Assembly: GCA_018645265.1 (NCBI GenBank) | Contig: JABGOS010000063.1 | Coordinates: 1 to 59,997 of the forward strand | Origin: Deltaproteobacteria bacterium | GTDB taxonomy: Bacteria > UBA10199 > 2-02-FULL-44-16 > JAAZCA01 | Length of the DNA: 59,997 bases | Reading direction: 5' to 3' | Shown here: in pieces, positions 81 through 43,806 of the stretch | Position numbering within the stretch: position 1 is the first letter of the stretch | How the letters are laid out: every line of letters starts with the position of its first letter | Notes under the pieces: generated by a model | What the model was told of the DNA's origin: nothing | What the model saw: the letters and a program-made list of their open reading frames with translations, nothing else | The model's database searches: none | Program-made: the position numbers and the translations under genes

Positions 81-557
81 ATGGCACTCTCAGGCGGAGA
101 ACAAAAAAGAGTAGATTTGACGGCACATAGAGCCAGTCAAGGCCTATTAGAATCAATTGAAACATACAGATCACAAAGAACGACACGGACCAGCGATAAA
201 ACTGATAAACCGGATGCTACCTATACACTGAATGACAGTCTCATAATATTCTCTCAACAATTCTCTACGGAATCTACCTGGTCATCATTGGTAGGTGGAG
301 TAATTCGATATTTCTGCAACCACACGCAGGAGGTGGCTGAATCATCCGATATCACACCTGCTTCAACGACAGGTGAAGGAATGCATATCTTAAGAAGTTC
401 CACCAACGGAAGAGATCTAAAGAGAAGGGAGTGGACCCTTCAAGAAATCTCAATGCTTCCAGTGGATGAAATGCAGAAAGCATTGGAATTGTTAAACCTC
501 GGGACACCCGCAGCCAAAAACAGGGTCGACGAGATCATGAAGAAACATCTCACATAA
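81..557 (+). CDS. hypothetical protein (158 aa), no recognisable domain
   Basis: Intact ORF with AGGAA about 9 nt upstream of the ATG. The stop codon abuts the palindrome doublet at 556-602. No motif recognised. Confidence 0.4.
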   Translation: MALSGGEQKRVDLTAHRASQGLLESIETYRSQRTTRTSDKTDKPDATYTLNDSLIIFSQQFSTESTWSSLVGGVIRYFCNHTQEVAESSDITPASTTGEGMHILRSSTNGRDLKRREWTLQEISMLPVDEMQKALELLNLGTPAAKNRVDEIMKKHLT

Positions 558-602
558 AAAAGTGTCCGACACTTTTTCTGAAAAAAGCGTCGGACACTTT
601 TG
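556..602. repeat. palindromic repeat doublet (locus 1): AAAAAAGTGTCCGACACTTTTT + AAAAAAGCGTCGGACACTTTTG, centres 567 and 592 (25 bp apart)
   Basis: Read directly from the sequence. Each copy has 9-nt inverted arms around a single centre base. Lies between convergent ORFs 81-557(+) and 614-1330(-). The two copies have complementary centre bases (C then G), so together they could also pair as one ~19-bp hairpin. Confidence 0.9.
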
Positions 603-613
603 AAAATCATCTA

Positions 614-1330
614 TTAATTATACGATTTATGACCCTCTATCCTACTGCAAACTGATTTTACTTCGGCATCTGAAAACTGCGTTTTCGCAAAACTATATCT
701 AACGCCATCATGCATTCCACTCATATTCGGTGTCCAGGAATCAGATTTACCCATAAAACAGACCTCGGCACCATACTGATAGTTATCAACTTCGAGATGT
801 AGATCCTTACTCTCGCCATCAGGTGCAATCCACTCAACCTGGCCATCAAAGGAACCAAAGGATTCGCTCTCTACAAAACGCTTTTTCATCCCTTTCTGAA
901 CACCCTTAATTTGGCCATACACCTTCTGGGCTTCACCAAATATTTCAGATTCCTTACGAACAACCACGCTAGTGCTCACCTTACAACCAATGGTACATCC
1001 TGAAATCGTCTGCATTTCACCAATCACATCCTGATATCTATAGTCATCTTTTTTATAAAACTCATCCGATATATAGAGAGATACATTGCGAGGCTTATCA
1101 ACATGCTTTTCATATTGATCATGATTAATCAGTGCAAAATCGATCTTACCATCGCCATCGATATCGCCCATCGCCCATTGTTGATGGAGGCTACCATCTG
1201 CTGGATTTGAATCGAGCATCAAGACCTCACCCTTCTTCGTATCAACATATCCAAAACCCCAAAGATTGAGATCATGTCGCACTTCAACTGTATCACCTTT
1301 CCTAATTGGAAACATAGCCTTCCCAGACAT
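614..1330 (-). CDS. hypothetical protein (238 aa) with one FG-GAP/Ca-binding-like DxDxDG motif (GDIDGDGKIDF)
   Basis: Intact ORF with AGGAGG-like sequence upstream (cctcctag on + strand at 1336-1343). Contains the DIDGDGKIDF motif. Flanked on both sides by near-identical 47-bp palindrome doublets. Confidence 0.55.
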   Translation of the reverse strand: MSGKAMFPIRKGDTVEVRHDLNLWGFGYVDTKKGEVLMLDSNPADGSLHQQWAMGDIDGDGKIDFALINHDQYEKHVDKPRNVSLYISDEFYKKDDYRYQDVIGEMQTISGCTIGCKVSTSVVVRKESEIFGEAQKVYGQIKGVQKGMKKRFVESESFGSFDGQVEWIAPDGESKDLHLEVDNYQYGAEVCFMGKSDSWTPNMSGMHDGVRYSFAKTQFSDAEVKSVCSRIEGHKSYN

Positions 1331-1461
1331 ACCTACCTCCTAGATTCATTATTAACCTGCAAGATAACTCATTATCGGTCGAATGATTCATTTGTTGCGT
1401 ACTTTCTATAGATGCCTTAACCAACCAAAAACGCACCTGTTTCACCTTCAACGCCTCTCAC

Positions 1462-1510
1462 AAAAAAAGTGCCCGACACCTTTTCTGAAAAAAGCGTCCG
1501 ACACTTCTTT
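1462..1510. repeat. palindromic repeat doublet (locus 2): AAAAAAAGTGCCCGACACCTTTT + AAAAAAGCGTCCGACACTTCTTTG, centres 1474 and 1499 (25 bp apart)
   Basis: About 44/47 nt identical to locus 1, in the same orientation and including the spacer TTTTCTGAAAAAAGCGTC. Lies 12 nt beyond the 3' end of tRNA-Gly and about 130 nt upstream of ORF 614-1330. Confidence 0.9.
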
Positions 1511-1521
1511 GTGACATCCTG

Positions 1522-2096: not shown

Positions 2097-3341
2097 ATGG
2101 AAACGAAAACATTTAAAGAGCTGAATCTAGCAGAAAAGGTCTATCGCGCAGTAAAGGCGCAAAAGTACGAGATCCCAACGCCGATTCAGGCAGAGGCGAT
2201 CCCTCACCTGCTCAAAGGGCACGATCTTATCGGTTGCGCGCAGACCGGAACCGGCAAAACAGCTGCTTTCGCGCTGCCTATATTGAATCAGCTCTCAATC
2301 AATCGCATTAAGGCGAAACCGCGCTCCGCAAGGGTGCTCGTCCTAACACCAACGCGTGAATTGGCAGCTCAGGTGAGTGAGAGCTTCAGAACTTACGGTA
2401 AGTTCCTCGGACTCTCCCACGCGCTCGTCTACGGTGGTGTTAAACAACACTCCCAGGTAAAAGCGCTCTCACGTGGCGTAGATATTCTTATCGCCACGCC
2501 TGGACGTCTTTTGGATCTGATGCGTCAGGGATATCTGAAACTCAATCAAATTGAGGTCTTCGTGCTGGATGAAGCAGATAGAATGCTCGATATGGGTTTC
2601 ATCCCGGATATCAGAAAGGTAATTTCTGAGCTACCAAAGAAACGTCAGGCCCTGCTATTTTCCGCAACGATGGCACCTCAAATTCGCCAGTTAGCAGAAA
2701 CACTACTCAATGACCCTGTTAAAATTACAGTAAAGTCGGAGTTGGTGACAGCTGAAAACATAGATGAACGAATTCATTTCGTTGATGATAAGGATAAACG
2801 CAACTTACTTTCCGAAGTATTAGGTAAACCGGACGTCGAACGCGCCCTCGTTTTTACAAAGACAAAGAACGGTGCCAACAGACTCGCAAAGCATTTAGGT
2901 AGAAGAGCCAACGCAATTCATGGCAACAAATCCCAAAGTGCAAGGCTATCCGCTCTACAGGATTTTCGTACCGGCAGATGCCGCGTACTGGTTGCAACTG
3001 ATGTTGCATCGAGGGGAATAGACGTTACGGGCATCACACACGTCATCAATTATGATCTACCGAGAGAAGCGGAGAGCTACGTTCACCGTATAGGTAGGAC
3101 GGCAAGGGCTGGGGCTAGCGGCTCCGCCATTTCATTCTGTGGCGTCGGTGACAAGCTGCTCCTTAGAAATATCGAACGGCTGCTCAAACGCTCCGTTCCA
3201 AAATGTGACGATCATTCCTTTCACTCCGACCTTATTGCCAAGGCAGGAATACAACCAAGGGAAGGTGGTCGACCAAGAGGAAGAGGAGCAGGAAGAGGAA
3301 GAGGCCCTCGTCGATTCGGCAATAGAAGCCGTCGGGCATAA
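2097..3341 (+). CDS. DEAD-box ATP-dependent RNA helicase (RhlE-like) with RG-rich C-terminal tail
   Basis: Q motif (PTPIQ), AQTGTGKT, PTRELA, TPGRL, DEAD, SAT, ATDVASRGID, HRIGRTARAG, and tail GRPRGRGAGRGRGPRRFGNRSRR. ATG 2097 (METKTFKEL) is preferred over ATG 2043 because AGGA lies 6 nt upstream and 2043 sits inside a leader hairpin. Confidence 0.9.
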   Translation: METKTFKELNLAEKVYRAVKAQKYEIPTPIQAEAIPHLLKGHDLIGCAQTGTGKTAAFALPILNQLSINRIKAKPRSARVLVLTPTRELAAQVSESFRTYGKFLGLSHALVYGGVKQHSQVKALSRGVDILIATPGRLLDLMRQGYLKLNQIEVFVLDEADRMLDMGFIPDIRKVISELPKKRQALLFSATMAPQIRQLAETLLNDPVKITVKSELVTAENIDERIHFVDDKDKRNLLSEVLGKPDVERALVFTKTKNGANRLAKHLGRRANAIHGNKSQSARLSALQDFRTGRCRVLVATDVASRGIDVTGITHVINYDLPREAESYVHRIGRTARAGASGSAISFCGVGDKLLLRNIERLLKRSVPKCDDHSFHSDLIAKAGIQPREGGRPRGRGAGRGRGPRRFGNRSRRA

Positions 3342-3363
3342 GTTTTTTTTGATATAAAAAAGG

Positions 3364-3402
3364 AAAAACCACGGGGCATGTACATATGCTCCGTGGTTTT
3401 TT
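3364..3402. terminator. bidirectional rho-independent terminator between convergent genes
   Basis: AAAAA, then CCACGGGGCAT / ATGCTCCGTGG (11-bp stem with one G.U, 6-nt loop), then TTTTTT. Lies between the helicase (+) and the FG-GAP gene (-). Confidence 0.65.
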
Positions 3403-3448
3403 ATATTATCAAGCAGCCTTCAGACATGCTGCCCTATTTGCACCTAAA

Positions 3449-5155
3449 TTATTCGTTCAAATAAACTGACATACCATCATCATCTGCGACAGTGAGATCA
3501 AGGTCTCCATCACCATCTAAATCAGCTGCTGCGACGCCAACTGGATCATCCGCAGAATCATACTCCACTTTATCTGCAAAGGTTCCATCTCCATTATTCA
3601 GAAACGCTATTATCTTAGAATTTTCATCCTCCGTAGCAACGACATCAACATCACCATCACCGTCAAAGTCAGCAGTAACAATATAGGCAGTATCGCCGCC
3701 CACACTATAGTTCACCTGATCAGCAAAAGTTCCATCTCCATTGTTTAGGAATGCTGAAATCCTAAGATCGTCATTGTTCGCTACAACAATATCAACATCA
3801 CCATCACCGTCCAGATCGGCAGCACTGATACCTGTGGGTTTATTCCTGGCATCATAACTTACAGCATCCTCAAAAGATCCATCCCCGCTATTTAAGAAAA
3901 CTGAAAAGGAACCACCATTAACATTCGTAACAGCAACATCGATACTACCATCGCCATTCAAGTCAGCTGTGATGATACCATAGGAAACGTAACCGATGTC
4001 ATAATCCACCTTACTCGCAAAAGTACCGTTACCGTCATTTAAGAAAACTGATATATCACGACTTGTAAGGTTAGTGACAGCAACATCAATATCACCATCA
4101 CCATCTAAATCAGCCGTCGCAATACCAAATGGGATCTGCCCAGTGCTATATTCAACACCACCAGCAAACGTACCATCACCATCATTCAGAAACACCGAGA
4201 ATGTATTATCTCCTGAGGCTGGAACACCAATGTCAATATCACCATCGCCATCAAAATCGGCTGTGGCAATGTCGTAAGGTCCAGATCCAGCATTATAATT
4301 CACTAGGCCTGAAAAAGTACCATCACCATCATTTAGACGTACTGAAAAATTATCAGAAAGTGCATTCAGGACTGCGCTATCGATATCACCATCGCCATCC
4401 AGATCAGCCACTGCGATTCCATAAGAAAAATTACCCATACTGTAACTGACTCCATCAGCAAATGTTCCACCCGTAGCATACACCATCGGATTTGTGCCTG
4501 CCGCAATCTCCTCCGCATTAGTTCCACCACCGGTGACACCTGTATCACCATCAAAATCGGCTACATCATCACTGGCATCGGTGGGATCCATTCCAGATGT
4601 CGGTTTGACAATTCCAGTTGGAATCCTAAACGGACTTGCCGAAGGGCGATATATATCAACATCCGCAGGCGTAAGAGCTATCCAACCGGTCTTATTATTT
4701 ACGAGCGGAACGGCACCATTTATATACTCATAACCATCAACGACACCTCCGCCATCAAGATCATTGATGGTCAGTTCCACTGAAGCGGTCACCGCAGAAT
4801 CATCCGCATCAACACAGGTGTATGTTATCGCAGAGGCAGTTAGCGCATCGGAGGGGATTGTAGTCCCTGATGCCAATGTCATAACCCTTGAATCCACATC
4901 AAAGGAGAGCCATGAGGGTAAATCCTCAATAGAATACACTATGGTCATAGAGGTATTTTCAGTCGTGCAAACAGGCATAACAATCTCACCCAGCGTCAGA
5001 CCCACCGCCATTCCATATGCGTTGTTTGTTCCCAGGGCAGTTCTCACAGCATCCTCAGTAGGCGCTGTCAAAGTATCAGCATCGCTACTGCTACTCCCCC
5101 CGCAAGCAAATGAAATAACCGCCATGAGGGATAGTAATAAAATTAACTTACGCAT
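3449..5155 (-). CDS. FG-GAP/VCBS-repeat lipoprotein (predicted 7-bladed integrin-alpha-like beta-propeller) with N-terminal Ig/cadherin-like region
   Basis: Lipobox signal peptide MRKLILLLSLMAVISFAC. Seven ~49-aa repeats of the form FSVFLNDGDGTF..V.Y..G..P.GI..ADLDGDGDIDV.V occupy roughly 3452-4500. Confidence 0.85.
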   Translation of the reverse strand: MRKLILLLSLMAVISFACGGSSSSDADTLTAPTEDAVRTALGTNNAYGMAVGLTLGEIVMPVCTTENTSMTIVYSIEDLPSWLSFDVDSRVMTLASGTTIPSDALTASAITYTCVDADDSAVTASVELTINDLDGGGVVDGYEYINGAVPLVNNKTGWIALTPADVDIYRPSASPFRIPTGIVKPTSGMDPTDASDDVADFDGDTGVTGGGTNAEEIAAGTNPMVYATGGTFADGVSYSMGNFSYGIAVADLDGDGDIDSAVLNALSDNFSVRLNDGDGTFSGLVNYNAGSGPYDIATADFDGDGDIDIGVPASGDNTFSVFLNDGDGTFAGGVEYSTGQIPFGIATADLDGDGDIDVAVTNLTSRDISVFLNDGNGTFASKVDYDIGYVSYGIITADLNGDGSIDVAVTNVNGGSFSVFLNSGDGSFEDAVSYDARNKPTGISAADLDGDGDVDIVVANNDDLRISAFLNNGDGTFADQVNYSVGGDTAYIVTADFDGDGDVDVVATEDENSKIIAFLNNGDGTFADKVEYDSADDPVGVAAADLDGDGDLDLTVADDDGMSVYLNE

Positions 5156-7305: not shown

Positions 7306-7338
7306 ATGCGGATTATCGATATTCATACTGCATGAAAG

Positions 7339-8775: not shown

Positions 8776-8784
8776 AGATAATTC

Positions 8785-18400: not shown

Positions 18401-18435
18401 AAAGGAGGCGCCCCAAGATGGAGCGCCTTTTTTTT
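18401..18435. terminator. rho-independent terminator after hup (convergent with the tatD fusion gene)
   Basis: AGGCGC ... GCGCCT stem followed by T8 (18428-18435), with an A-rich stretch upstream. Confidence 0.5.
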
Positions 18436-18438: not shown

Positions 18439-19833
18439 TCATCCAACGTTCATATACTCCCGAATCCTCATCGGCACACCCAGCTCCTTCGCCTTGGCCT
18501 TACACGCATCAAGATCCAGATCTGGGAGTGCAACCACTGAGATAGCGACATCAGGAATATATTTCTTAGCTTCTAGGATAAAATCGCAGACAGCCTTATA
18601 AGCTTTCTCACCATACTTTGATCTGCACACCTCCGAATAGAACCCTGCATCCGCGGCATTGAGAGAGATGGATATCGAATCCACAAGCCCCTTCAACTCA
18701 GGCAGCACATTTCTGCCATAGAAGAGATTTGCCAAACCATCGGTGTTGAGACGGATCTTCTTGACCCCACGTTCCTTCATCCTCTGTGCAATCACCTTTA
18801 GAACTTCAAGTCTCCTGGTAGGTTCTCCATAACCGCAGAACACAATTTCATCATATTTTTCGGGCTGTCCTACGGAGCGAAAAATATCATCGACATCGGG
18901 TTCGTGCTCCAACTTCAAATAATGTCCCTTTACCTCATAGTCTATAAACTTTGGGCAAAACTTACAGGCTAGATTGCAGGTGTTGGTTATATTGAGATAC
19001 ATCGAATTCCGTATCTGATAGGCTATGCAAGTCTCCATCTCTGAACCTGGAAGCCCGAAGATTCTCTTAGCATTCAAAGTCGTCACACGAGCGACATCCT
19101 TCAAGGCCAAGCCTTTCAGCTCCGCAATTTTTTCAGCAACCTGCACTACATAGGAAGGCTCATTTCTCTTGCCACGATAAGGCTCAGGTGAAAGATAAGG
19201 GCAATCGGTTTCGATTAAGATTCTTTCGAGCGGAATAGTCGCAACGACCTCCTGAAGTTCATGTGCATTCTTAAATGTTACAACACCTGGTATTGAAATA
19301 CAGAAACCCTCTTCGATCAATTTCTCAGCGAACGCCCTATCACCTGAAAAGCAGTGAAAGACGCCCCCTTTCTTTGGAACTCCAACCTCTTTGATAATTT
19401 TCCATACATCATCGTGCGCATCGCGATCATGAATTACCACCGGCTTATTCATCTCATCAGCCAGCGTTAAAAGTTGCGCAAAGCGTTTTCGCTGAACCTC
19501 AGGATCGGAATGTTTATAATAATAGTCGAGGCCTATCTCGCCAATCGCTACCACTCGCTTATTCTGAGCCAACTCCCTCAGCTTCGAAATCCAACCCTCA
19601 TCCATCTGCGCTACATCATGGGGATGGATACCAACCGTAGCAAAGATCCTACGGTGTGATTTGGCGAGTTCCAAAGCACCGGAGTTGCCATCCAAACCAT
19701 TACCCGCACCGATAGTGATAATATATTCCAGGCCAGCATTCCAAGCCCGGTCCATCACCTCGTTTCTATCTTTGTCGAACTGCGAGAATGTAAGGTGGGC
19801 ATGCGTATCGATAAAACTACTTTCCATCTTCAC
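18439..19833 (-). CDS. TatD-family metal-dependent hydrolase fused to a C-terminal radical SAM domain
   Basis: TatD motifs in the N-terminal ~260 aa: IDTHAHL, GEIGLDY, VIHDRDAH, FHCFSG, ETDCPYL. Then NITNTCNLACKFC (CxxxCxxC) and a further ~190 aa. Confidence 0.85.
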   Translation of the reverse strand: MKMESSFIDTHAHLTFSQFDKDRNEVMDRAWNAGLEYIITIGAGNGLDGNSGALELAKSHRRIFATVGIHPHDVAQMDEGWISKLRELAQNKRVVAIGEIGLDYYYKHSDPEVQRKRFAQLLTLADEMNKPVVIHDRDAHDDVWKIIKEVGVPKKGGVFHCFSGDRAFAEKLIEEGFCISIPGVVTFKNAHELQEVVATIPLERILIETDCPYLSPEPYRGKRNEPSYVVQVAEKIAELKGLALKDVARVTTLNAKRIFGLPGSEMETCIAYQIRNSMYLNITNTCNLACKFCPKFIDYEVKGHYLKLEHEPDVDDIFRSVGQPEKYDEIVFCGYGEPTRRLEVLKVIAQRMKERGVKKIRLNTDGLANLFYGRNVLPELKGLVDSISISLNAADAGFYSEVCRSKYGEKAYKAVCDFILEAKKYIPDVAISVVALPDLDLDACKAKAKELGVPMRIREYMNVG

Positions 19834-24194: not shown

Positions 24195-24223
24195 AAAAAA
24201 ACCCTCTGTTTTGCAGAGGGTTT
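24195..24223 (-). terminator. hairpin plus U-tract between rpmA and obg (terminator or attenuator)
   Basis: The minus strand reads AAACCCTCTG-CAAAA-CAGAGGG-TTTTTTT: a 7-bp GC-rich stem followed by T7. Confidence 0.5.
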
Positions 24224-29073: not shown

Positions 29074-29263
29074 GAGGGCCCGCTTTTAACAGCAAGAACC
29101 CCCTAAAAGCAACGAGAAGATATTCCGATATCAATAAATTCTATAAATAACGGATATTCAGCAAAAAAAATCATTTTGGTCCAAAAAGCTTGAAATTATG
29201 GGCAAAAAAGTTAGCAACTAACCCCCTGAAGGCACGATAACACCTCATCCTTGATAGACAGAT

Positions 29264-29320
29264 AAAAAAGGTGTCGGACACTTTTTTGGGAAAAGAGCAA
29301 AAAGGTGTCCGACACCTTTT
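29264..29320. repeat. palindromic repeat doublet (locus 3): AAAAAAGGTGTCGGACACTTTTTT + AAAAAGGTGTCCGACACCTTTT, centres 29276 and 29310 (34 bp apart)
   Basis: Read directly. Lies in the divergent intergenic region. The second copy ends 9 nt before ATG 29329 of the giant ORF. Centre bases are complementary (G then C). Confidence 0.9.
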
Positions 29321-29328
29321 GTGAACTT

Positions 29329-32300: not shown

Positions 32301-35300
32301 CAAACATGACCTCGAAGGATTTGCTCGAAGGGTTTTACTCGAAGCTCCAATCACTGGAACTATTCATCTAGGTGAGGAAGACATTCACTTTCATCTACTC
32401 CACAGTCAAACACCATTCGTAGCCGATGGACATATTGGTCTTGCAATAGGAGAGATCGTCAGCACATCGAAACGAGAATCATGGGGTAATGATCTCACCT
32501 TAGAAGTCTTGAAGATAAAAGCAGCTGTAGCGCATCTTATGTCGATTGGAGAGCTAAGCCCATCCGACGCAAAAACAGGAGATCGCGTAGAAGCCGCCGT
32601 CACACCACTGATAGGGGGAGGGGAATTACTCGGTGTAGCCTTGCAAAAATTCCTCGGACTAAAGAACGGCGATTTCACGACATCGCCAAATACCGATGTA
32701 GAAAATGACGACACACCCCCACCACCCGAATCGATACCGACCATCCCAGCTGGGCCAAAGCTTCCCAAGGGAATAAAGTGGCAAAATCTGTTTGCACAAA
32801 TAGCAGCTGATGAACACGCTCTCACGGAATCCGATATAAAAATTGGAACTGCAGTTCTCCGCGACTACTTTGATGCCGTTAAATATCTCTACAGAAGATT
32901 CTGGCCACACACACTCGGCAGAATAGTCGAGGAGCACAAGTCCACAAACCCTGAAGGAATTCAGCGGGCAATCCTCGCTTTCTTTAATGGAATAGGTGTT
33001 CCAACGACGATAGAAGGCACATCCGCAAACGCCGATGGTGGCAGTGTAGATCATCACATCGCTACGTTGGCATTTGAAGATTACAGGGATCTCTTTCCCC
33101 AGCCTTCACAAAGTGGAAACAGAATTAGGCTGCCCCTAAATGAAGCTCTAGTAACAAGGCTCATAGAGCTACACATAGAAAACTATACAGGTTCATCCGC
33201 CCCTGATTTTACCGGAGTGACAAGGCTTGTTCATGCCAATATCGACGAATTCAACGCAGATGCCCTTGTTCCCCAGTCGAACGACTTGGAGATTCCACAT
33301 GACGGGCTGCTAGGAAGAACCCTGAGGCTACATGCCAACACATGGTTGGCTGGGAGAGCTCAAACCGCATTTGACTTACCCACACTAAGACGCGCCCTAT
33401 TCAATTTGAGCTGTGCGATAGGGTTCGGTACCACCCCCGAGAGAAGTCAGATTGGAGACGCTCTCTCATCGACTGGAAGGGAGGGTGCCACATCAGATCT
33501 CCATATCGACCTCTTGAATGATACAATCTCCACACAGATAGAATTACAAAATGCCCTATTAGAAATAGTAAAGGACCCGGAGATCGGGATATCAAGATTC
33601 TTCTCTGACAATTATCGCGCACCTCATCTTGATGTAACGAACCTAAGTGAGTTGGCTCAAGAATATGTTCGTCTGAGAATAACCAGCAACCTTCCGATAG
33701 ATATCGAAGCTATGGCGGAACATTTCGTTGACGCAAACCTATCGCAATACCCTGCAGTAGCACTTCAAGTTGCACACTCTTACAGAACGGTTCTCAGCGA
33801 ATGGATACAGTCTATCAGAAGCACATTCGGTGATCCTATCGAACTCGCACACCTAGCCATCCCCCCTTTAGCTGAAGATGCTGCTACGCCATCAGCTAGC
33901 TTGAATGATTTCAGGGAAAGGGTGGCAACCGAGATTGATGATGACATGACCTACGAAGGGTTGAATCAACTCGAAGCTCGTTATGGATATCTTGCAACCT
34001 TTCTAGGGCTGGAGCTCAGCCCAAGTCTTGATCAGGCCACTTCCGAAGCTTACACCAATTCAGTTCAGCCTGCACAATCGCAACTCGATGACGAATTAAC
34101 TGGAATAGTCGACAGGGTTGCAGAGGTTCATGGACGTTCGTATGAAATATACCTAGCAACGAAGAGTGTTGACCTGGATGGCGTGGATGAAGAGGCGGCC
34201 ACAGCGAGGCTGGCTGAGCTCGAAGCATCGTGGCAGATAATCACAGGTCTGCAGGATGAGGTCACGGCGCTATACTCATTAAAGGAACGTGCGGCCGCAA
34301 TTATAGAAATCAGGACGAACGATACCGCTAGGGATAGAGCCCTTGAAACTCTACCTTCAAATTTATTTGAAGTTCCAGAAGCCGCTCCAGAAGGAACAAT
34401 TGGGGTTTTAGAGCTTCAAATACAATCAGCAATGGCTTTTCTTAATTCAGCCGACGGCACGATGCTTGGCAACTCCACCGCCCTTGAAGAACATCTGTCA
34501 TCATTAGAATCCGAAAGACTGCAGGGAGTAGCTGCGAAGACAGTTGCTCTGGTGCACAATGCACGACAGGCCTTGGCAGACGCACACAATGAAGTCACAT
34601 CAAAGATCGATGAAACAACTAACACTCATATAGCTGACATCGAAGCACTGACTGTTGATTTGAGCGGTACCGGTGGAAATCGCGCCCTCTTCATCGATGC
34701 GGTGACAAGATTTACGGCTCTACGTGGTACTGCCATTACAGCCGCCCAGGAACTTTCCGCAAGTGATGGCATTCTCGATACGAAACTATCCGATACGGAG
34801 ACAGTCATAGCGGATGCCAGGCAAACGCTAACTGATGTTGGAGAGGTTCACGGAAAAAAACTGCAACAAGCGATATCCCAGTTGGTACATCTTTTAGAAA
34901 CAGCGAACGCCACAAGAAATAGTGTCACAGAAACCAACAGAACCCTCCTTGCCGCAATGGATACTGCAACCAAAGCCATTGCAACAGAAGAGTCTAAACT
35001 AACGCCAGCTGAACCTGCAAACCTTGCCAAACCGAAGCCGTTGCGTACGGATATCGACGATTCACTTTTTATAACTGGAAAACCAAAGTCAGGTGCCCAC
35101 AGACTCGCCGCTTCAAGCTTAGACAATATAACGCGCTCACAAATCCTCTCCACTAATTCGAAGAGCTATCTCATACCGCTAACTGATGCAGTAGCTATTA
35201 GAAGATGGAGGGATAGCGACAGAAGCGAAGCTTTACAACTGACATCAGTCTTAGGCGATGAGATCATCATCAATCCACACACCTACGGCATAAACATTAC

Positions 35301-38300
35301 AAGAATTGAAGATGCAGATCCAGCTTCACCGCTAGCTAATCTTTCTAAGAAGATAGGTATGCTGCTCCAAAGAAGGAGCAACGAGCTCATACTTCTTGGT
35401 GACTTGGCAAGAAGCGAAGAATCCACAGAATATTATAGGAACCTAATATCACATATAGCCTATCTGGATAGCGATACCAAGATTGATGAGATACACACTA
35501 CCATTCGAAGTTGGGCGGTAGCTAACAGAAGAATCCTAAATGCGAGATACCTCAAAAAGGAACGTTCATCAGATATTACGCACGACGATTACGATAGCGC
35601 AGTACATGCAAACTGGCACAATCTGTATGATACATACTTGAAAAATCCGCATATGGGTATGCTCGTAGTTAGAAATGGCCTCCCTGGTCGTGAAGAGGAT
35701 ATCATATGGGCTGGACCTGTCGATACGAGGGATGCGCAAAGAAGCATTGATACAAAGGGTAATACATTTAGATACATGCACGGCGCAACTGGAGAATGGA
35801 CGGAGATAGATTTAAGGAGTTTGCCTGGCGTAAACTCCAAAACAACACTATTCATTGCGCCCTTTTATAGAACATCTGTGGAAGGCATACTGACTCTAAG
35901 AACAAACTGGGTAATGAGCGGTGATCCATCGCTTTTAGATCTGGGCTGGATATATCAGATGGCGAACCAGTCAGTCGAACTGGACGACTTTCCCGTATCA
36001 ACCGAAAGACAACACTTTGGACAATTCATCCATGGACTGATCTTACCCACAAGCCGAACCCCCATCGGTGAAGGACCGCCGCTCACCTTGCATGAAACAC
36101 AGACACTAGCAACGACCGCATATCATGTAGCTATGAACAGACCCTCCCCTATTAAATTTGAAGCTGTAAGCGATAGGGCGCTTATGGGATGGATTGAATC
36201 AATTCCAGAGCGGATTGAATTTTCGGATGACAGGGATATTACAACCGCCGAGTTTAGAGCTGAGCTAAAAAAACCTGAATTCAGGGAGTTCATAGCAAAG
36301 CTTTATCTCGCTTACCATTATTCCGACGATGAAGAATCTGAATCTATTGCTCTAAGAACTTTTTTGGCAATTGCCACCACCGGTGCATGGCACACAGAAC
36401 ATAGTGTGGTCCACACCATCGAAAGAATCATTCGCGAAAATACAAACAAAATATATAGAAACATGCACGACCCACTCTTCGCACCTATAGATGAGGGGTT
36501 GGAGAGAGCGCATCCCGAAGTCGGAGCGGTTGGCAGGGGCCAGCTCTGGGCGGTAATAAAAGCCTTGGAACCCAACATGGCGGTACAACTCCCAAAGAGT
36601 TGGCCGATGCATAAGATCAAAGCTAGATTGGCAAAGGCGCCAGCGTGGATTAAACCGATGATGCACAGGCTACCATCGATGGCCAAACTGATCACCATTG
36701 TAGCCCTTACATACGAATCCCTCCCGAAGGATTTTAGAGATAAGTTCATGGGTCTATTCTACCTCTGCTTCGACAACAGCAGAATCCCGAGCGATACCAT
36801 GAAAGCATCCATAGAAGATCGCTTACGGAAACTGTACGCCTCTCAATCGCAAGCTGGCGTAGCGGGACATGACACAATAATAAAAGCTCTCAGCGCAAAT
36901 TTAACTGATGATTTTACATTAGCGAGATGGCTTACCGGCGAAACCGATCCCTGGATACAGAGATCGAACAGCTGGCAGACGGCAGATCCTGCATATAGAC
37001 TGAGAATGCTCGCTCCTGAACTAATGAAAGCCAGACGGTTCATCCTAGAGTTTGCTGGTGAAAAACTTGCTGCGGGCAGACAAGCAAATCCCATATCAGA
37101 ATCGATGAAGCGCTTCGTAGAAAGAAATCCGGAACTCAAATCAGCAATTATAGTCATCTACTTTCTACTCATGAAGATGGATGAGGTGTATCGACACAAG
37201 ATCTTCCAGTTCTTTGAACTACAAGCACAAGACCAGAGACCTGAGCTCTTCGCTGAAATGATTACAAATGGGGACATGCTATCGGAAATTAGAAGGACGT
37301 TAAGAGAACCCTTCGGTGATGATGGCGCTGTAACAAATGCATTTCAGATCACCGGCATGGAGGAACCCGAACTTCCTCTTGAGCTACTATCACCAGTTGC
37401 AAGGCTGCAATATCTAGCACCTAATATCTTCAAGCAGGACCCCGCCTTCGTAGAAGCTACCATTAAAGTTTCAAAGACAAACGGACAACTGACGAATCTG
37501 ACATCGCTCGCTCGCAACCATCGGGAACTTAGACCAGCTATAGCTGCACTAGCGCTCGCAATGCTGCGCTTTGATAGAGGTAAACGTTATCAAGTTTACG
37601 ATGCCTTTGATAAATTACCCAATCTTACCCCTGAAGATTTCGTGGACACCCTCATAGAACTCCTACTCTTGGATGATATGAACGCAATATGCGGTGACAA
37701 TCCAATTTCGGAAAATGAGCTTCTAATTCCAACCTTTGAACTCGACGCTGAAGACCAACTACCTTCAACCCACATTGAATATCGCATAGATGAACTCGAA
37801 ATGTTGCCACGGGTGGGAAGTCAGGCCTTCCAACAACTCGTAAGATCCCACTTGGACCAGGAAGCTACGACATACGAAGATGAGCTGCGAAGGAACGGAC
37901 AATATAAAGGTCAAAGTAAAACCGTTATTAAAAGGCACGTCGCACAGTTATTCAATGAAACTGACATGGCCCATAAGAAGGTAATCCTCCTCGCTAAACT
38001 CATCGATCCTACAGAATCGTTCTATGATAGGATGACAAAACATAACCAAGCAAAGCTCGCAACGAGATTGGACAGTCTTCAAAAAGATAAACACGCGGTA
38101 TCTAGATTGATAACTTGGTTCGGATACACTTTCATGATCAAGAACAGGGATGAAGTTCTGGCAGCGAGAGATCGCTTGAAGGCAGATGGTGGATCATCTT
38201 CTGGACCTTCGGGCTCATCCGGCCCTCAAGGTGCCGGTGGCGGATCAATTGTAGGTGGTGGTGGGGAAATAAGCGGCCACGACAAAGCAGGTTTTAGTTC

Positions 38301-38583
38301 AACTCAAGCATCTCCTGTTATACCAACTCCGCAATACGGACCCGCGTCCTCATCACCCATACATTCAATGGGGGCGACAAGACCTGTGTGGGTTACGAGC
38401 AGTCATATGCCAGGAATTTCAGCCGCAAGATTTCACCCAACATCTCCGACATGGCTTCCAACACATGTTAATCAAAATGTAATTGGGGGAGCTATACCTA
38501 CAATGATGGGAGCTTCTCAACTTTTCTCTCCAGTCAACATGGCGAGTCTCTCTACAATGAGTCCAACACCGTTTATGAGATAG
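29329..38583 (+). CDS. giant hypothetical protein (~3,084 aa from ATG 29329), no recognisable domain
   Basis: Uninterrupted 9.3-kb reading frame. No signal peptide, TM segment, Walker A, HExxH or Cys-cluster motif seen. Pro/Gly-rich N-terminus, largely helical-looking body, Gly/Ser then Pro/Ser/Thr/Met-rich tail. The start is uncertain because no SD is present, and the GTG at 29305 lies inside the palindrome. Confidence 0.85.
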   Translation: MSDIKKTGDGGGTPPHVPGTPPAARGTSPKPDGEVRPVDGYLAVKDGATDVAAGVGPTSMAARLDPAEIEVWNSVRISQEILGLAKRAAALYSRDSRSHASDARNIFIGALSYLKEKGFDPETKEVGKTPTDSQIATALLRGFNGYYSDMPPAARTISKSDIEKTSRGRSAGGKVFVLFKSFIDGSSAQLNLVGKKQPKAQAKKKSQAPTFKAETVAHRVLTALHIVTEIEGMRDELADPHTLDSMLKEARRIDRDLRSLGRDEATLTPKLRRIASRTSALQKIKELESIRNDTLTILTRETTDFNDERINQYVSNISDNVDEWIQKNTADLYWIDPEGEKVAIAPTLFQTIADQAIRSYVAIWLSEQKAGETRRRLEITESAFKKARLLITHKFASVKEEKAIKGLIGRLFHHVARQDASRIEGSKTDRSPGTAEEGSFRNIHSLTNLEAIIGPDLIAELDGYYDDIRSGVAGTETNHDIYAQSFYELFLQYIRRAHNEHGAEFGPEVLSRRGLETRFIRAIFLRVDGARERFDDKTLELLINFFTSQFSDSSSLIKSEDDISKLKPSLDEYAIEERAKAASTQRLGNFIPYDHRVSHRDYVYQVMGVGEPYFEEDFNDHKLGITWKSSLGWGSIRENPDTIGVLHWQRIVEKWYAILAFAETEGILTDAMLEMPDPTIEKRPETISTDLWNAYAGWRVSIGRGEDVTVEPRGEDGVSAMISRYEYLSEIAEAQGQRIDFLEYLATIYPPIARMLLRADNEGVIELSEPDPLHNRFYETWSYMTWAQQVHFGGYEAYTGVRAATFDSHRAQEVIPEHWDARRYATPEMSERLGIEREELIVIINGYLRSVREILPRVDVRDTRNARLSPELRRRRSKYTIKFNVVDKREQSLPTIKAAKGLDRIIDDHIKAGAYDGRIDYIRNYLGTISLLIPNASVSDPQNGTLALSDIENELEAVSKEHLIKSSIYRDATTTSSSYSPDDIREVREFYKHDLEGFARRVLLEAPITGTIHLGEEDIHFHLLHSQTPFVADGHIGLAIGEIVSTSKRESWGNDLTLEVLKIKAAVAHLMSIGELSPSDAKTGDRVEAAVTPLIGGGELLGVALQKFLGLKNGDFTTSPNTDVENDDTPPPPESIPTIPAGPKLPKGIKWQNLFAQIAADEHALTESDIKIGTAVLRDYFDAVKYLYRRFWPHTLGRIVEEHKSTNPEGIQRAILAFFNGIGVPTTIEGTSANADGGSVDHHIATLAFEDYRDLFPQPSQSGNRIRLPLNEALVTRLIELHIENYTGSSAPDFTGVTRLVHANIDEFNADALVPQSNDLEIPHDGLLGRTLRLHANTWLAGRAQTAFDLPTLRRALFNLSCAIGFGTTPERSQIGDALSSTGREGATSDLHIDLLNDTISTQIELQNALLEIVKDPEIGISRFFSDNYRAPHLDVTNLSELAQEYVRLRITSNLPIDIEAMAEHFVDANLSQYPAVALQVAHSYRTVLSEWIQSIRSTFGDPIELAHLAIPPLAEDAATPSASLNDFRERVATEIDDDMTYEGLNQLEARYGYLATFLGLELSPSLDQATSEAYTNSVQPAQSQLDDELTGIVDRVAEVHGRSYEIYLATKSVDLDGVDEEAATARLAELEASWQIITGLQDEVTALYSLKERAAAIIEIRTNDTARDRALETLPSNLFEVPEAAPEGTIGVLELQIQSAMAFLNSADGTMLGNSTALEEHLSSLESERLQGVAAKTVALVHNARQALADAHNEVTSKIDETTNTHIADIEALTVDLSGTGGNRALFIDAVTRFTALRGTAITAAQELSASDGILDTKLSDTETVIADARQTLTDVGEVHGKKLQQAISQLVHLLETANATRNSVTETNRTLLAAMDTATKAIATEESKLTPAEPANLAKPKPLRTDIDDSLFITGKPKSGAHRLAASSLDNITRSQILSTNSKSYLIPLTDAVAIRRWRDSDRSEALQLTSVLGDEIIINPHTYGINITRIEDADPASPLANLSKKIGMLLQRRSNELILLGDLARSEESTEYYRNLISHIAYLDSDTKIDEIHTTIRSWAVANRRILNARYLKKERSSDITHDDYDSAVHANWHNLYDTYLKNPHMGMLVVRNGLPGREEDIIWAGPVDTRDAQRSIDTKGNTFRYMHGATGEWTEIDLRSLPGVNSKTTLFIAPFYRTSVEGILTLRTNWVMSGDPSLLDLGWIYQMANQSVELDDFPVSTERQHFGQFIHGLILPTSRTPIGEGPPLTLHETQTLATTAYHVAMNRPSPIKFEAVSDRALMGWIESIPERIEFSDDRDITTAEFRAELKKPEFREFIAKLYLAYHYSDDEESESIALRTFLAIATTGAWHTEHSVVHTIERIIRENTNKIYRNMHDPLFAPIDEGLERAHPEVGAVGRGQLWAVIKALEPNMAVQLPKSWPMHKIKARLAKAPAWIKPMMHRLPSMAKLITIVALTYESLPKDFRDKFMGLFYLCFDNSRIPSDTMKASIEDRLRKLYASQSQAGVAGHDTIIKALSANLTDDFTLARWLTGETDPWIQRSNSWQTADPAYRLRMLAPELMKARRFILEFAGEKLAAGRQANPISESMKRFVERNPELKSAIIVIYFLLMKMDEVYRHKIFQFFELQAQDQRPELFAEMITNGDMLSEIRRTLREPFGDDGAVTNAFQITGMEEPELPLELLSPVARLQYLAPNIFKQDPAFVEATIKVSKTNGQLTNLTSLARNHRELRPAIAALALAMLRFDRGKRYQVYDAFDKLPNLTPEDFVDTLIELLLLDDMNAICGDNPISENELLIPTFELDAEDQLPSTHIEYRIDELEMLPRVGSQAFQQLVRSHLDQEATTYEDELRRNGQYKGQSKTVIKRHVAQLFNETDMAHKKVILLAKLIDPTESFYDRMTKHNQAKLATRLDSLQKDKHAVSRLITWFGYTFMIKNRDEVLAARDRLKADGGSSSGPSGSSGPQGAGGGSIVGGGGEISGHDKAGFSSTQASPVIPTPQYGPASSSPIHSMGATRPVWVTSSHMPGISAARFHPTSPTWLPTHVNQNVIGGAIPTMMGASQLFSPVNMASLSTMSPTPFMR

Positions 38584-38585
38584 TT

Positions 38586-38608
38586 AAAAAAAGTGTCGGA
38601 CACTTTTT
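38586..38608. repeat. palindromic repeat, single copy (locus 4): AAAAAAAGTGTCGGACACTTTTT, centre 38598
   Basis: Starts 3 nt after the giant ORF stop (38583) and ends 3 nt before the rimO stop (38611). This is the position of a bidirectional terminator. Confidence 0.9.
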
Positions 38609-38610
38609 GG

Positions 38611-39930
38611 TCAACCGACGACTTTGCCTACGAGGTCATAATGATGGGCTTCGGTGATTTCCACGTAGGCAAAATCACCTGCTGCTGCGAGACCTTCGTT
38701 TATGTAGATTACCCCATCAAACTCGGGGGCCTGGCCTTCATGTCTCGCCTGAAGGAGCATATCCGTTTCGTCGGATGAACCCTCCACGAGGACACGAACT
38801 ATCTTTCCTAAAAACATATTATTGTTGCTTAAGGATACTTCCTTTTGCAGTTCCATGATCTCAGTTTGCCTTGCAATGGCAACATCGTGTGGCACCTGAT
38901 CCTTTAACTTCGCCGCGGGCGTCCCCTCCTCTGGAGAAAAGGTGAACACCCCCAGGTGCTCAAACCTAGCCTCACCAACGAAATCTAGGAGCTCATCAAA
39001 CTCCTCCTGAGTCTCCCCTGGAAAGCCAACTATCAAAGAGGTGCGTATCGAAACGTTAGGAATTTTTTTCCTAAATTCCTCGAGAAGCTTTCTGATTTCC
39101 TTGCCGCCGCCCTTCCGCTTCATGCGCTTCAAAACCCTATCGTTTATATGCTGTATCGGCAGATCAATATATGAACAGATATCCTGACAATCCCTCATTA
39201 TCTCAATGACATCCGCTGGAAATTTATGGGGGTAGGTATACAGAAGCCTAAACCACCTCTCACTTCCCTCCAAATCAACGAGTCCTTCCAAAAGGCTCGC
39301 AAGATCCGTTTTGATATCCTTCCCATATGCTGTCAGATCCTGGGCAATGAGATTTATCTCCTTGATATCCTTAGCGAGCATCCCTCTTGCCTCTTCAACT
39401 ATTGAATCGACAGGCCTGGAACGAAACTTTCCGCGAATTTTTGGAATTATACGGAAGGAGCAAGGGTGAAAACACCCCTCGGCTATCTTGAGATATGCCG
39501 AATGATGTGGGGAGGTATGAAGCCTCGCAGTTTCATGATCGTAGATAAATGTCGATTCCTTAATTTCATTTCTAGGCTTTCCATCCCAGTCCTCAACTAT
39601 CTGGGCGACACGATAGAATTCGCCAGTCCCTATAAATACATCGACCTCTGGGAAGAGCTCCGAAAGCTCGCCCTCATAACGTTGAGGAAGACAGCCTGCG
39701 ACCATAAGCAACTTACAGCTTCCACTTTTTTTGAGTTCTGTCATTTCGAGAATGGTATCTATAGCTTCCTTCTTCGCATCCTCGATAAATGCACACGTAT
39801 TGATAACTATAATTTGCGCCTTGTTTGGATCTTCGACGAGCTCGTAGCCTACGCCGGTCAGCTGACCAAGCATCACCTCGGAATCTACGAGATTCTTAGG
39901 ACAACCCAGGGATATAAAATGAAGTTTCAT
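38611..39930 (-). CDS. rimO: ribosomal protein S12 methylthiotransferase RimO-like (radical-SAM motif reads CxxxCxxR)
   Basis: MKLHFISLGCPKNLVDSE, INTCAF, AGCL (UPF0004 cysteines), TSLIVGFPGETQEEF and a TRAM-like C-terminus. The cluster motif is EGCFHPCSFR instead of ...C..C. Confidence 0.85.
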   Translation of the reverse strand: MKLHFISLGCPKNLVDSEVMLGQLTGVGYELVEDPNKAQIIVINTCAFIEDAKKEAIDTILEMTELKKSGSCKLLMVAGCLPQRYEGELSELFPEVDVFIGTGEFYRVAQIVEDWDGKPRNEIKESTFIYDHETARLHTSPHHSAYLKIAEGCFHPCSFRIIPKIRGKFRSRPVDSIVEEARGMLAKDIKEINLIAQDLTAYGKDIKTDLASLLEGLVDLEGSERWFRLLYTYPHKFPADVIEIMRDCQDICSYIDLPIQHINDRVLKRMKRKGGGKEIRKLLEEFRKKIPNVSIRTSLIVGFPGETQEEFDELLDFVGEARFEHLGVFTFSPEEGTPAAKLKDQVPHDVAIARQTEIMELQKEVSLSNNNMFLGKIVRVLVEGSSDETDMLLQARHEGQAPEFDGVIYINEGLAAAGDFAYVEITEAHHYDLVGKVVG

Positions 39931-40000
39931 GTTAGCCTATACACGCCTGTATTTTCGCGCCTGATATTATGAATCTTGATTGGCAGCGATACAACGCAGT

Positions 40001-41326: not shown

Positions 41327-41499
41327 AGCTTCCTCCTTGTCAGGTGCATCGCATAATAGCGTCAAAGTATGAAGAAACCAAGGATTATTCGCCGTATGAC
41401 GTGTGATATCAGATTTCTACTTCAAGAAAATTACATATCAAAAACATTGGATCGTATTTATCATTGAAATTACGCCATGCCTCTGGCAGCCTCACCCAT

Positions 41500-42594
41500 A
41501 TGAGCCTCAACTGCGGCATAGTTGGTCTTCCAAACGTCGGCAAATCGACACTTTTCAACGCAATGACAGCGGCGCACGTGCCTGCGGAAAACTACCCATT
41601 CTGCACGAAGGATCAAAACACCGGAATGGTCGCAGTGCCTGACGATAGGCTGGAGAACATAGCAAAAATATTCAAGCCGGAACGGGTCGTCCCCACGCAG
41701 GTTGAGTTCGTCGATATAGCTGGACTCGTGGAGGGAGCGCACAAAGGCGAAGGACTTGGAAATCAATTCCTGGGGCATATCAGAAACGTCGATGCGATCG
41801 CACACGTTGTAAGATGCTTCGATGCACCGAACGTGGTTCACAGCTATGAACAGGTGGATCCTATACATGATATCGAGATAGTGGAAACGGAGCTCGCACT
41901 CGCTGATCTTGAAATGGTTGTAAAACGATTCGACAAGATCGCCCATGCAGCGAGAACTGGTTGTAAGGATTCAAAAAGGGAGTTTTTACTTCTAGAAAAA
42001 ATCAAAAATACTTTGGAATCTGGGGAGCCTGCTATTAAAGCAGGACTTTCAGAGCTGGAATGGGGCGAACTAGGAGACCTAGTCCTTCTTACTAATAAAC
42101 CAGTCATCTACATCCTAAACGTCAATGAAACTGATGTTAAACAGCCCTCTGAAACTGTCATACGAACCATCGACTACGCTAAAGGAAAGGGCATCCCGGC
42201 AATCGAGCTCTGTGGTTCAATTGAAGCTGAGCTCGGTGACTTAAGCGCTGAGGAGAGACGGGAATTCTTGGATGACCTAGGGCTTTCCGAGTTAGGTCTC
42301 CCTAGACTTATCCATGCGACCTATACCCTGCTCAACTTAATCACCTTTTTTACTAAAGATGGCCCTGAGGCCCGAGCCTGGACAGTGGCGGCGGGATCTA
42401 AAGCTCCACAGGCTGCAGGAAAGATACATACCGATTTTGAGCGTGGCTTCATACGTGCAGATGTCTATTCATATGACGACTTGATCAAATCTGGAGATGA
42501 ACATAAGATAAGGGAGCAAGGTCACCTTAGGACTGAGGGTCATGACTACGTGGTAAATGATGGAGATGTGATACATTTTAAATTCAATGTTTAA
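41500..42594 (+). CDS. ychF: ribosome-binding ATPase YchF
   Basis: MSLNCGIVGLPNVGKSTLFNAMT and a TGS-like C-terminus (DGDVIHFKFNV); 364 aa from ATG 41500. The upstream TTG extension is rejected. Confidence 0.93.
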   Translation: MSLNCGIVGLPNVGKSTLFNAMTAAHVPAENYPFCTKDQNTGMVAVPDDRLENIAKIFKPERVVPTQVEFVDIAGLVEGAHKGEGLGNQFLGHIRNVDAIAHVVRCFDAPNVVHSYEQVDPIHDIEIVETELALADLEMVVKRFDKIAHAARTGCKDSKREFLLLEKIKNTLESGEPAIKAGLSELEWGELGDLVLLTNKPVIYILNVNETDVKQPSETVIRTIDYAKGKGIPAIELCGSIEAELGDLSAEERREFLDDLGLSELGLPRLIHATYTLLNLITFFTKDGPEARAWTVAAGSKAPQAAGKIHTDFERGFIRADVYSYDDLIKSGDEHKIREQGHLRTEGHDYVVNDGDVIHFKFNV

Positions 42595-42635
42595 TTGAAG
42601 TTATAAGCTCAATGATACAAGATACAGGAGACCTT

Positions 42636-43241
42636 ATGAAACACTTCGTCACAATATTACTCTTCGGTTCCATTTGGGGATTCATTGAAGCCACTGTCGG
42701 CGGTGCAATGCACGTAATACACATTCCCTTCACCGGAACGATCATGGCGTCGATAGGTTTTGCTGTATTATATGCAGCGTTGAAAAATGGTTTGAAGCCC
42801 TCACACCTTTTCGCGGTGAGTTTGGTAGCAGCTTCATTCAAGATGCTCGATATATGGTTATTCTCCCTTCCACTGTTTCATATGCAGGTGATCAATCCGG
42901 CAACCGCTATAGCAATGCAGGGCCTTGCAGCAGCATTGATACTCAGAAAATCGACAGGGCTGGCTCCGCTCGCATCGCGAATGCTCTTCACAGCATCGCT
43001 ATCGATGGTCACATTCAACGTAATATCGCTCGGCATATATGGATGGCCTACACATCACACCAATGATCCTATGGGTGCGGCGCTTATACAACTCCCGATC
43101 ATGACGATAGTGGCAACGATGCTATCGAAGGGATACGATCTGATTTACGGCAGAATAAACCTATCATTCAATATGAGGTGGCAGGCGGCAACAACCGCAC
43201 TGTTAATTGCGCTGACGTTCTTGGCGCGAGCATACATCTAG
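42636..43241 (+). CDS. integral membrane protein (about 6 TM), unknown function
   Basis: AGGAG 5 nt upstream of ATG 42636. Hydrophobic throughout. Its stop TAG is directly followed by the ATG of the next gene (TAGATG). Confidence 0.6.
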   Translation: MKHFVTILLFGSIWGFIEATVGGAMHVIHIPFTGTIMASIGFAVLYAALKNGLKPSHLFAVSLVAASFKMLDIWLFSLPLFHMQVINPATAIAMQGLAAALILRKSTGLAPLASRMLFTASLSMVTFNVISLGIYGWPTHHTNDPMGAALIQLPIMTIVATMLSKGYDLIYGRINLSFNMRWQAATTALLIALTFLARAYI

Positions 43242-43781
43242 ATGATATATATACTCTGTGATGAAATAAATTCGGGAAAGAGCACATTCGTGCTTGGTCT
43301 GTCGAAGAAGCTGGCGCAGGATGGGCTCTGCATTGGTGGATGGACGACCCCACCACACATCGAGAGAGAGACTAAGGTCGGCCACGACTTTGTAGCGATA
43401 AACGACGGTATAATGGATGAACCTATTCCCTACACACGCCCACACCCTTTCGACAATTCATTCCAATGGAAAAAATATTTCTTCAGCAAGTCAGCCTTCA
43501 AGAAAGCTAGGCTTCTCAACTTCAACTGCGACCTCTTCATAGTCGATGAGATAGGACCGCTCGAACTCGATGACAAGCAGGGCTTCTTTCAGATGATAAA
43601 TAAATTTGTTGAGATCCCTCAAAACACCCTTTTAGTACTCAGAAAAGGGCTGTACAAATCCATTCCGGAGATCATCGGAAACGCTGAACACGCACTCTTT
43701 TCACTTGAATCCAAAGAACAATTGGCCAACGAAATCATCAACATACATCCACAAAAAGTGTCCGACACTTTTCACACATAA
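43242..43781 (+). CDS. P-loop NTPase, THEP1/DUF2478-like
   Basis: Walker A-like EINSGKST near the N-terminus and Walker B LFIVDEIGPLE; 179 aa. The last 9 codons (KVSDTFHT) are encoded by the palindromic repeat. Confidence 0.65.
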   Translation: MIYILCDEINSGKSTFVLGLSKKLAQDGLCIGGWTTPPHIERETKVGHDFVAINDGIMDEPIPYTRPHPFDNSFQWKKYFFSKSAFKKARLLNFNCDLFIVDEIGPLELDDKQGFFQMINKFVEIPQNTLLVLRKGLYKSIPEIIGNAEHALFSLESKEQLANEIINIHPQKVSDTFHT

Positions 43782-43806
43782 AACCCAAAAAGTGTCCGAC
43801 ACCTTT
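43753..43806. repeat. palindromic repeat doublet (locus 5): AAAAAGTGTCCGACACTTTT + AAAAAGTGTCCGACACCTTTT, centres 43763 and 43797 (34 bp apart)
   Basis: Read directly. The first copy overlaps the 3' end of the NTPase gene. The second lies about 60-70 nt upstream of the B12-radical SAM gene. Confidence 0.9.

Follow-up and report, generated by a model that had tools for sequence, protein, structure and literature searches.

A 59,997-nt stretch of contig JABGOS010000063.1 (assembly GCA_018645265.1, Deltaproteobacteria bacterium), referred to here as the window, carries nine matches to one 19-nt palindrome. All nine are genuine copies of a single short repeat. They probably constitute a dispersed palindromic repeat resembling repetitive extragenic palindromes (REPs) and REPINs, which is predicted to serve as a bidirectional intrinsic terminator and to be multiplied by copy-and-paste through an enzyme acting in trans. 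Taken alone, the proposal that this is a dispersed, copied repeat is very likely correct. The involvement of a transposase of the RAYT type is a conjecture, to which we assign a rather low probability.

The window was searched with AAAAGTGTCSGACACTTTT, allowing up to two mismatches. Nine matches were obtained, starting at positions 558, 583, 1465, 1490, 29267, 29301, 38589, 43754 and 43788, and none of 100 dinucleotide-preserving shuffles contained a copy of AAAAGTGTC-S-GACACTTTT (9 observed, 0 expected). Relaxing the search to three mismatches added no site in the window; the 11-nt core with at most one mismatch occurred once more, at 6431, inside a gene and at chance level (0.37 expected). 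The number and positions of the copies given in the original prediction, its statement that the window holds no further copy, and the centre-to-centre distances of 25, 25, 34 and 34 bp within the doublets were all borne out. The family unit can be written as A(4-7)-GTGTC-S-GACAC-T(4-7), present singly or as two adjacent copies, and many copies carry an outer extension of the form CACA-A(n)-core-T(n)-TGTG. Both 25-bp (type I) doublets are copies of one unit of ~56 nt, with a common spacer (TTCTGAAAAAAGCGTC) and a common left flank (TCTCACA), and the two units are located ~900 bp apart. The 34-bp (type II) doublets align equally well in either orientation, so that the alignment does not fix their relative orientation.

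Coding sequence makes up 92.3% of the window according to the gene list of the analysis. All five loci, a local density of five per 60 kb, fall in the non-coding 7.7% (Table 1), an outcome with a random probability of ~3e-6. Eight copies are wholly extragenic, and the ninth, at 43754, forms the end of the NTPase open reading frame (ORF), including its stop and the ~9 codons before it, in keeping with the earlier statement that every copy is intergenic or overlaps a stop codon. Two of the junctions are convergent, two are unidirectional and one is divergent. The position of a terminator is filled at four of the five loci, namely the two convergent junctions, the 3' end of tRNA-Gly and the NTPase/B12-radical SAM junction. 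At the tRNA site the doublet lies 9 nt downstream of tRNA-Gly(ccc) (1521-1592, - strand) and upstream of ORF 614-1330 (- strand), and a T7 run follows it on the - (tRNA) strand. The single palindrome is bordered by the stop of the 9.3-kb gene (+ strand) and that of rimO (38611-39930, - strand). The copies had been described as marking the borders of lineage-specific genes. They do border novel genes, but they also follow tRNA-Gly, RimO and NTPase; the genes preceding the elements are conserved and novel alike. In an Rfam scan, tRNA-Gly alone reached the gathering score, and the doublet at 29262-29324 matched no family. Permissive Rfam matches near 29267 were to miRNA-precursor hairpins and were dismissed as meaningless.

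Table 1. The five palindrome loci of the window, their surroundings and the fold energies of the doublets on the two strands.
Positions	Strand	Element	Surroundings	Folded segment	Energy, + strand	Energy, - strand
549..603	.	Type I doublet, spacing 25 bp	Takes up all 56 nt between the convergent ORFs 81-557 (+) and 614-1330 (-)	558-601	-25.3 kcal/mol	-28 to -29 kcal/mol
1456..1512	.	Type I doublet, direct copy of the 549-603 unit	Between tRNA-Gly(ccc) and ORF 614-1330 (-)	1465-1508	-13.5 to -15 kcal/mol	-27.6 to -31.5 kcal/mol (tRNA strand)
29262..29324	.	Type II doublet, 34 bp	Divergent gap between radical SAM 26578-29073 (-) and the 9.3-kb gene	29267-29319	-36.4 kcal/mol, 23-bp stem	-30.5 kcal/mol
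38585..38609	.	Single palindrome, A7-GTGTCGGACAC-T5	27-nt gap between two stops			
43750..43810	.	Type II doublet, 34 bp	Between NTPase 43242-43781 (+) and B12-radical SAM 43865-45439 (+)	43754-43806	-17 to -21 kcal/mol	-32 to -34 kcal/mol

Energy folding places the two palindromes of every doublet opposite each other as the arms of a single long hairpin. Its stem has 20-23 bp and its loop 3-15 nt, and the more stable strand reaches about -25 to -36 kcal/mol. As the palindrome is self-complementary, both copies of a doublet are complementary to each other. Fold Z-scores were about -6 to -8 for the better strand of each doublet, and -3.2 on the weaker strand of 1465-1508. The single palindrome at 38589 reached about -6.4 to -6.9 kcal/mol alone, and -9 to -10.3 kcal/mol in a longer stretch with extra flanking pairs. 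Two kinds of compensated change were seen within the family. C2 pairs with G18 at 3121/3153 of L020, and G4 pairs with C16 both at 29267/29301 of the window and in L018; L018 and L020 are described below. Pairing between the palindromes is supported by these changes; a model of two small hairpins cannot explain them. A 9-bp stem with a 3-nt loop had originally been regarded as the best fold and its loop as too small for a terminator. Each doublet instead forms one long hairpin, and the objection from loop size is superseded by it. The strand asymmetry of the doublets (A-C on the + strand corresponding to G-U on the - strand) was considered as a trace of RNA-level selection at the tRNA site. 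This was rejected because the 43754 doublet relates oppositely to its genes and the window has a strong base-composition skew, which the asymmetry may reflect.

The doublets are built of an A-run, a stem and a T-run, with T4-T7 on both sides and on both strands. With an A-run on one side of the stem and a T-run on the other, a transcript of either strand would show a hairpin and then a U-tract, for which reason a role as bidirectional intrinsic terminator is predicted. Private hairpins, each with its own stem sequence and built in the same A-run/stem/T-run manner, are found in the window at 3364-3401, 18401-18435, 24195-24223 and 47846-47878, and the same terminator form is used by relatives. 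The window has five convergent junctions of at least 27 nt, and there is a hairpin in each: three are private and two belong to the family, the latter two filling the entire gap between the stops. The shape, together with these two of five convergent junctions, supports the bidirectional terminator role that was among those first proposed. The housekeeping operons had been said to use unrelated, ordinary terminators; the stems of these are individual, and their shape is that of the family elements. The elements resemble bidirectional intrinsic (Rho-independent) terminators in the A-tract, stem-loop and T-tract, in their convergent location and in an energy comparable to that of the private ones. 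They differ from them in the repeated use of a single stem sequence, at many sites and across genomes.

The distribution of the family was followed in other genomes. The closest GyrA and RimO matches to the window come from uncultured genomes labelled Deltaproteobacteria, Myxococcales or Pseudomonadota bacterium, and the nearest relatives are just 82-83% identical at the protein level. When GTDB was scanned for the exact 19-mer with one genome per species, for which ~17 chance matches were estimated, single chance-level matches and two real cases were obtained. One is CAYPII01 (GCA_964410765.1), a metagenome-assembled genome (MAG) of 67% GC with a RimO 63% identical to that of the window, where the exact 19-mer occurs in multiple copies at five loci, each a triplet or doublet with a spacing of 21-22 bp. 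The other is the MAG JBDRBN01, whose contig L018 (3.2 kb, 45% GC) carries eight copies. A 21-mer scan of JGI metagenomes gave six small contigs only, among them L053, which holds the same array as L018, and L054-L057 with further copies. The preference for gene ends is retained in these genomes: the element starts at or just past a stop codon at five of five loci in CAYPII01, at all three gene ends of L018 and in both L055 and L057. L056 resembles the 43754 locus of the window, its upstream ORF terminating within the second palindrome. The upstream genes in CAYPII01 are housekeeping-like, among them one for a protein resembling leucyl aminopeptidase and one orthologous to the gene of the Rce1-like (CAAX-type) protease of the window.

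The sites themselves are not orthologous. A CAYPII01 contig syntenic with the 50.6-58.2 kb part of the window has a triple palindrome at a junction that is empty in the window, and the rimO-ychF-NTPase-B12-radical SAM region of CAYPII01 has no element where the window has two loci. No copy was present in ~99 kb from other relatives, including the nearest found and those with the same gene order, where about eight loci would be expected at the density of the window. Identical sequence at differing sites in patchily distributed genomes argues for dissemination by copying, and against descent or independent invention. A literature search by sequence string gave unrelated primer matches only, and a plasmid collection gave no meaningful match.

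REPs and REPINs measure 20-40 bp and reach tens to hundreds of copies in a genome. They are short extragenic palindromes in which doublets are over-represented; they form hairpins in single-stranded DNA or mRNA and lie between convergent or unidirectional ORFs (PMC3116915, PMC3733652). The elements described here are likewise multi-copy short palindromes (19-25 nt), extragenic, located at convergent and unidirectional junctions, with doublets that fold as single hairpins and with copies at non-orthologous sites. A REP/BIME-like role had been the first of the roles suggested for them, and it gains support from the extragenic location, from the hairpin doublets with compensatory changes and from the non-orthologous sites elsewhere. 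It is compatible with the terminator role. As in the REPINs and REP/BIME elements of Pseudomonas fluorescens and E. coli (PMC3116915), a doublet forms a long hairpin, the unit is copied together with its spacer, and singlets also occur. The elements differ from REPINs in being perfect odd palindromes, so that the orientation of a copy is defined by the centre base only, in having A/T-run flanks, and in having no GTAG tag and no RAYT found. Their spacers are 3-15 nt, those of REPINs typically 20-100. Identical sequence occurs here in genomes of 46% and 67% GC, whereas REPIN-RAYT systems have been described as largely inherited vertically (10.1101/2022.05.22.493013). The GTAG/CGTC REP superfamilies, which include Stenotrophomonas SMAG and Neisseria dRS3 (PMC3733652), share stems of 8-9 bp, dimers that may fold into a larger hairpin, a location between convergent or unidirectional ORFs and probable transcription. 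The TGTC/CGTC of the present family is paired within the stem and is not an unpaired terminal tag; there is no CCA tail, and the loop is 1-3 nt, compared with 4-5 nt in the superfamilies.

We propose that the doublet, as single-stranded RNA or DNA, would form one hairpin of 20-23 bp with a loop of 3-15 nt. To judge from its shape and position, the element would act as a portable bidirectional intrinsic terminator, and its hairpin may protect the 3' end of the transcript. The common spacers and flanks, and the non-orthologous sites in another genome, suggest that the copies arose by copy-and-paste. Their spread, in the form of hairpin-forming units, may have depended on an enzyme that acts in trans and recognises the hairpin; the likeliest agent, by conjecture, would be a RAYT/IS200-like tyrosine transposase.

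Several observations weigh against this proposal. No RAYT or other transposase was found in Pfam scans (PF01797) of 20 window ORFs or in gene-call tables, which comprise the annotated loci of relatives and the source contig ~8 kb to the left and ~2.4 kb to the right (contig end) of the window, a coverage of well under 10% of any genome. An unpaired GTAG or CGTC tag marks most catalogued REPs (PMC3733652); by inspection none flanks the palindromes, and TGTC/CGTC lies inside the stem. At about -7 kcal/mol the hairpin of the single palindrome is weak, and the two centre bases of a doublet are each other's complement in only ~7 of 11 cases. The better-folding strand of the 43754 doublet is opposite to the flanking genes. 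The 29267-29319 doublet is no 3'-end element: it lies upstream of the 9.3-kb gene, whose ATG (29331) follows 12 nt later. CGTC-type REPs, too, are reported to have no dedicated transposase, and their tag often reads TGTC (PMC3733652). As no tag and no RAYT were seen in the accessible sequence, and in view of this report on the CGTC REPs, the elements are filed as a new, untagged REP/REPIN-like family outside the catalogued ones.

Ordinary intrinsic terminators without any mobility would account for a shape and position like those of the private terminators; an efficient core would then have come to be shared through selection, gene conversion or local duplication. The type I units, ~900 bp apart, could also have arisen by local duplication. 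Such terminators are nevertheless an unlikely explanation for identical 19-21 nt, AT-rich flanks included, at non-orthologous sites of a 67% GC genome, or for the lack of the element in the sampled relatives, the nearest found included. Nor does termination need a fixed stem sequence; the private terminators all differ. Recombination sites were another of the roles first suggested. The doublets would then be attC-like sites, or sites of homologous integration, delimiting cassettes, and a circular DNA with one doublet would insert into the chromosome at another doublet there. The orphan ORF 614-1330, for which a search of 5.8 billion proteins gave no homologue, indeed lies between two direct copies of the 56-nt type I unit. 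Contigs L018 (1-3264) and L053 hold an array of small accessory genes on one strand; to judge from the translations, their products include an HEPN/MNT-like pair as well as proteins resembling an AAA ATPase and a retropepsin. Each gene is followed by a composite repeat of 100-150 nt containing two family palindromes 50 bp apart and a 'cattgcgag...gaagcaatcc' palindrome, and one tandem unit is empty. The L018 units fold as long imperfect hairpins. The bracketed ORF and the array lend the suggestion weak support. By inspection, R'' (RYYYAAC) and R' (GTTRRRY) boxes had no match in the L018 units or the window doublets, and the gene-call tables of the examined loci and of the source contig contain no integrase. 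Most copies follow core genes (tRNA-Gly, rimO, the leucyl aminopeptidase-like gene), and repeats on both sides of a gene are equally expected if they merely mark both ends of a transcription unit. We therefore hold recombination sites to be improbable. A combined scheme seems a similarly long shot: a horizontally spreading portable terminator would double as a cassette crossover site, and a recombinase or hairpin-specific transposase unrelated to integron integrases or known RAYTs would capture accessory genes, such as ORF 614-1330 or those of the L018 array, and stack them between doublet copies. If true, it would explain the identical sequence in 46% and 67% GC genomes.

The palindromes could also be read as operators of a dimeric DNA-binding protein, cooperatively bound at the doublets and defining a regulon of novel genes, as had been suggested. 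The perfect odd palindrome, its highly conserved core, doublet spacings of 22-25 and 34 bp resembling those of tandem operators, and the doublet 12 nt upstream of the giant gene would fit, and the 11-bp core is used in promoter-overlapping operators (TTGAC-core-N14-core) of a prophage family. The locations speak against it: four of the five loci are at 3' ends, those of the tRNA and rimO included, and just one precedes a gene. The elements of CAYPII01 and L018 begin at or just past stops, and the upstream genes of the former are housekeeping-like. The length of the A-run that separates the core from the outer CACA is variable, and the compensated changes fit pairing between palindromes, not the half-sites of double-stranded DNA. 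No sigma-70-like promoter was found around the 29267 doublet, and nothing resembling the palindrome motif lies upstream of the lexA-like gene. An operator role is thus quite unlikely, and the regulon of novel genes is contradicted by the single upstream locus and by the housekeeping-type genes that precede the elements of the 67% GC relative. Inverted pairs of a DNA-uptake-type tag appear very improbable. In Neisseria, the DNA uptake sequence (DUS) often occurs as inverted pairs downstream of genes, where the pairs double as terminators. The present family is likewise specific to certain genomes, and the likeness lies in a genome-specific sequence reused as inverted pairs downstream of genes. 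The DUS is strongly over-represented throughout its genome, inside genes as well; no such excess of isolated half-sites is seen here, and the family has no known link to competence. Outside the palindromes GACACTTTT occurs twice and AAAAGTGTC not at all, against ~0.3 expected for each, so the half-site is hardly enriched, and shorter half-site words are about at or below expectation.

If the REP/REPIN-like reading is correct, a family from a poorly known lineage of uncultured, deltaproteobacteria-like organisms would be added to the known REP-like repeats, with unusual traits: an odd perfect palindrome with A/T flanks, no GTAG/CGTC tag and hosts of very different GC. It would offer a simple marker of transcription-unit ends in these MAGs, and a test case for the spread of a repeat without an evident RAYT.

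Viral sequences also contain the core. Doublets of GTGTCSGACAC occurred in 22 viral contigs, and two control palindromes of the same composition occurred in 7 and 3 contigs. As the controls also give 3-7 viral contigs, the link to viral operators is a probable coincidence of the search. In the prophage family (L028, L029, L035, L038-L043, L045), TTGAC-GTGTCSGACAC-N14-GTGTCSGACAC lies over a promoter, with a third, degenerate site 46 bp away; these operators are probably unrelated to the window elements. Copies 1.26 kb apart in Bacteroides-like phages (L004, L005, L008) were considered as insertion-sequence ends and rejected, since they lie at the terminase/portal and portal/protease junctions. 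The palindrome AAAAGTGTCGGACACTTT with a common flank ACACTAACCA is found exactly at those junctions (L004 1910 and 3171; also L005, L008 and L011). Iteron-like arrays, in which a 23-bp unit (GTGTCCGACACcctactacctaa) is repeated in tandem 5-6 times, were seen in two AT-rich viral contigs (L027 3923-4048, L030 5544-5646).

Other repeats were noted in the relatives. Perfect DnaA-box 9-mers (TGTGGATAA/TTATCCACA) directly adjoin the palindrome units of the 67% GC MAG (L019 ~2470-2480, L020 ~3112-3121), and degenerate DnaA-box 9-mers are present at the corresponding place in L016 and L017. A different palindrome doublet, CCCCTCCTTACAAAGGAGGGG/CCTCCCCTTTGTAAGGGGAGG, was seen in relatives at L049 3173-3221 and 9898-9946 and at L047 5787-5868. 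It has the same architecture of mutually complementary palindromes and is common to genomes of 49% and 60% GC. In the nearest relative by RimO (83%; L046), long intergenic hairpins are located at 518-623, 2000-2092 and 4773-4890. Their arms are tandem short repeats, either TTAAGAA-type or six GTGTCTRA facing six TYAGACAC, and the latter hairpin lies between a TIG/lactonase-like gene and rimO.

The 9.3-kb gene (29331-38583) encodes a 3,084-aa ORF with no Pfam domain and had been regarded as an ORFan. Weak homologues (~24% identity) adjoin rimO in two relatives (L047, L049), and it is therefore no true orphan. Other giant genes are found nearby in L049 and L051, the one in L051 encoding 3,622 aa and lying ~6 kb from rimO. 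From these comparisons, the product looks like a conserved giant protein with no assigned function. ORF 614-1330 (- strand) encodes 238 aa with a calcium-loop-like DIDGDGKIDF motif. A 464-aa ORF at 18439-19833 (- strand) fuses TatD DNase and radical SAM domains, and the fusion is kept in a relative (L070 7860-9254). GyrA homologues of the lineage (P0021, P0039, P0047, P0055 and P0093) are ~1,290-1,300 aa long with an intein domain (PF14890), and the GyrA of the window is without the intein. A 14-nt inverted repeat (TCTTCCGCGCTGAG/CTCAGCGCGGGAGA) at 51996-52037, just upstream of the Peptidase_S24 (LexA-like) gene (52037-52660), could be the operator of this lexA-like gene or a hairpin.

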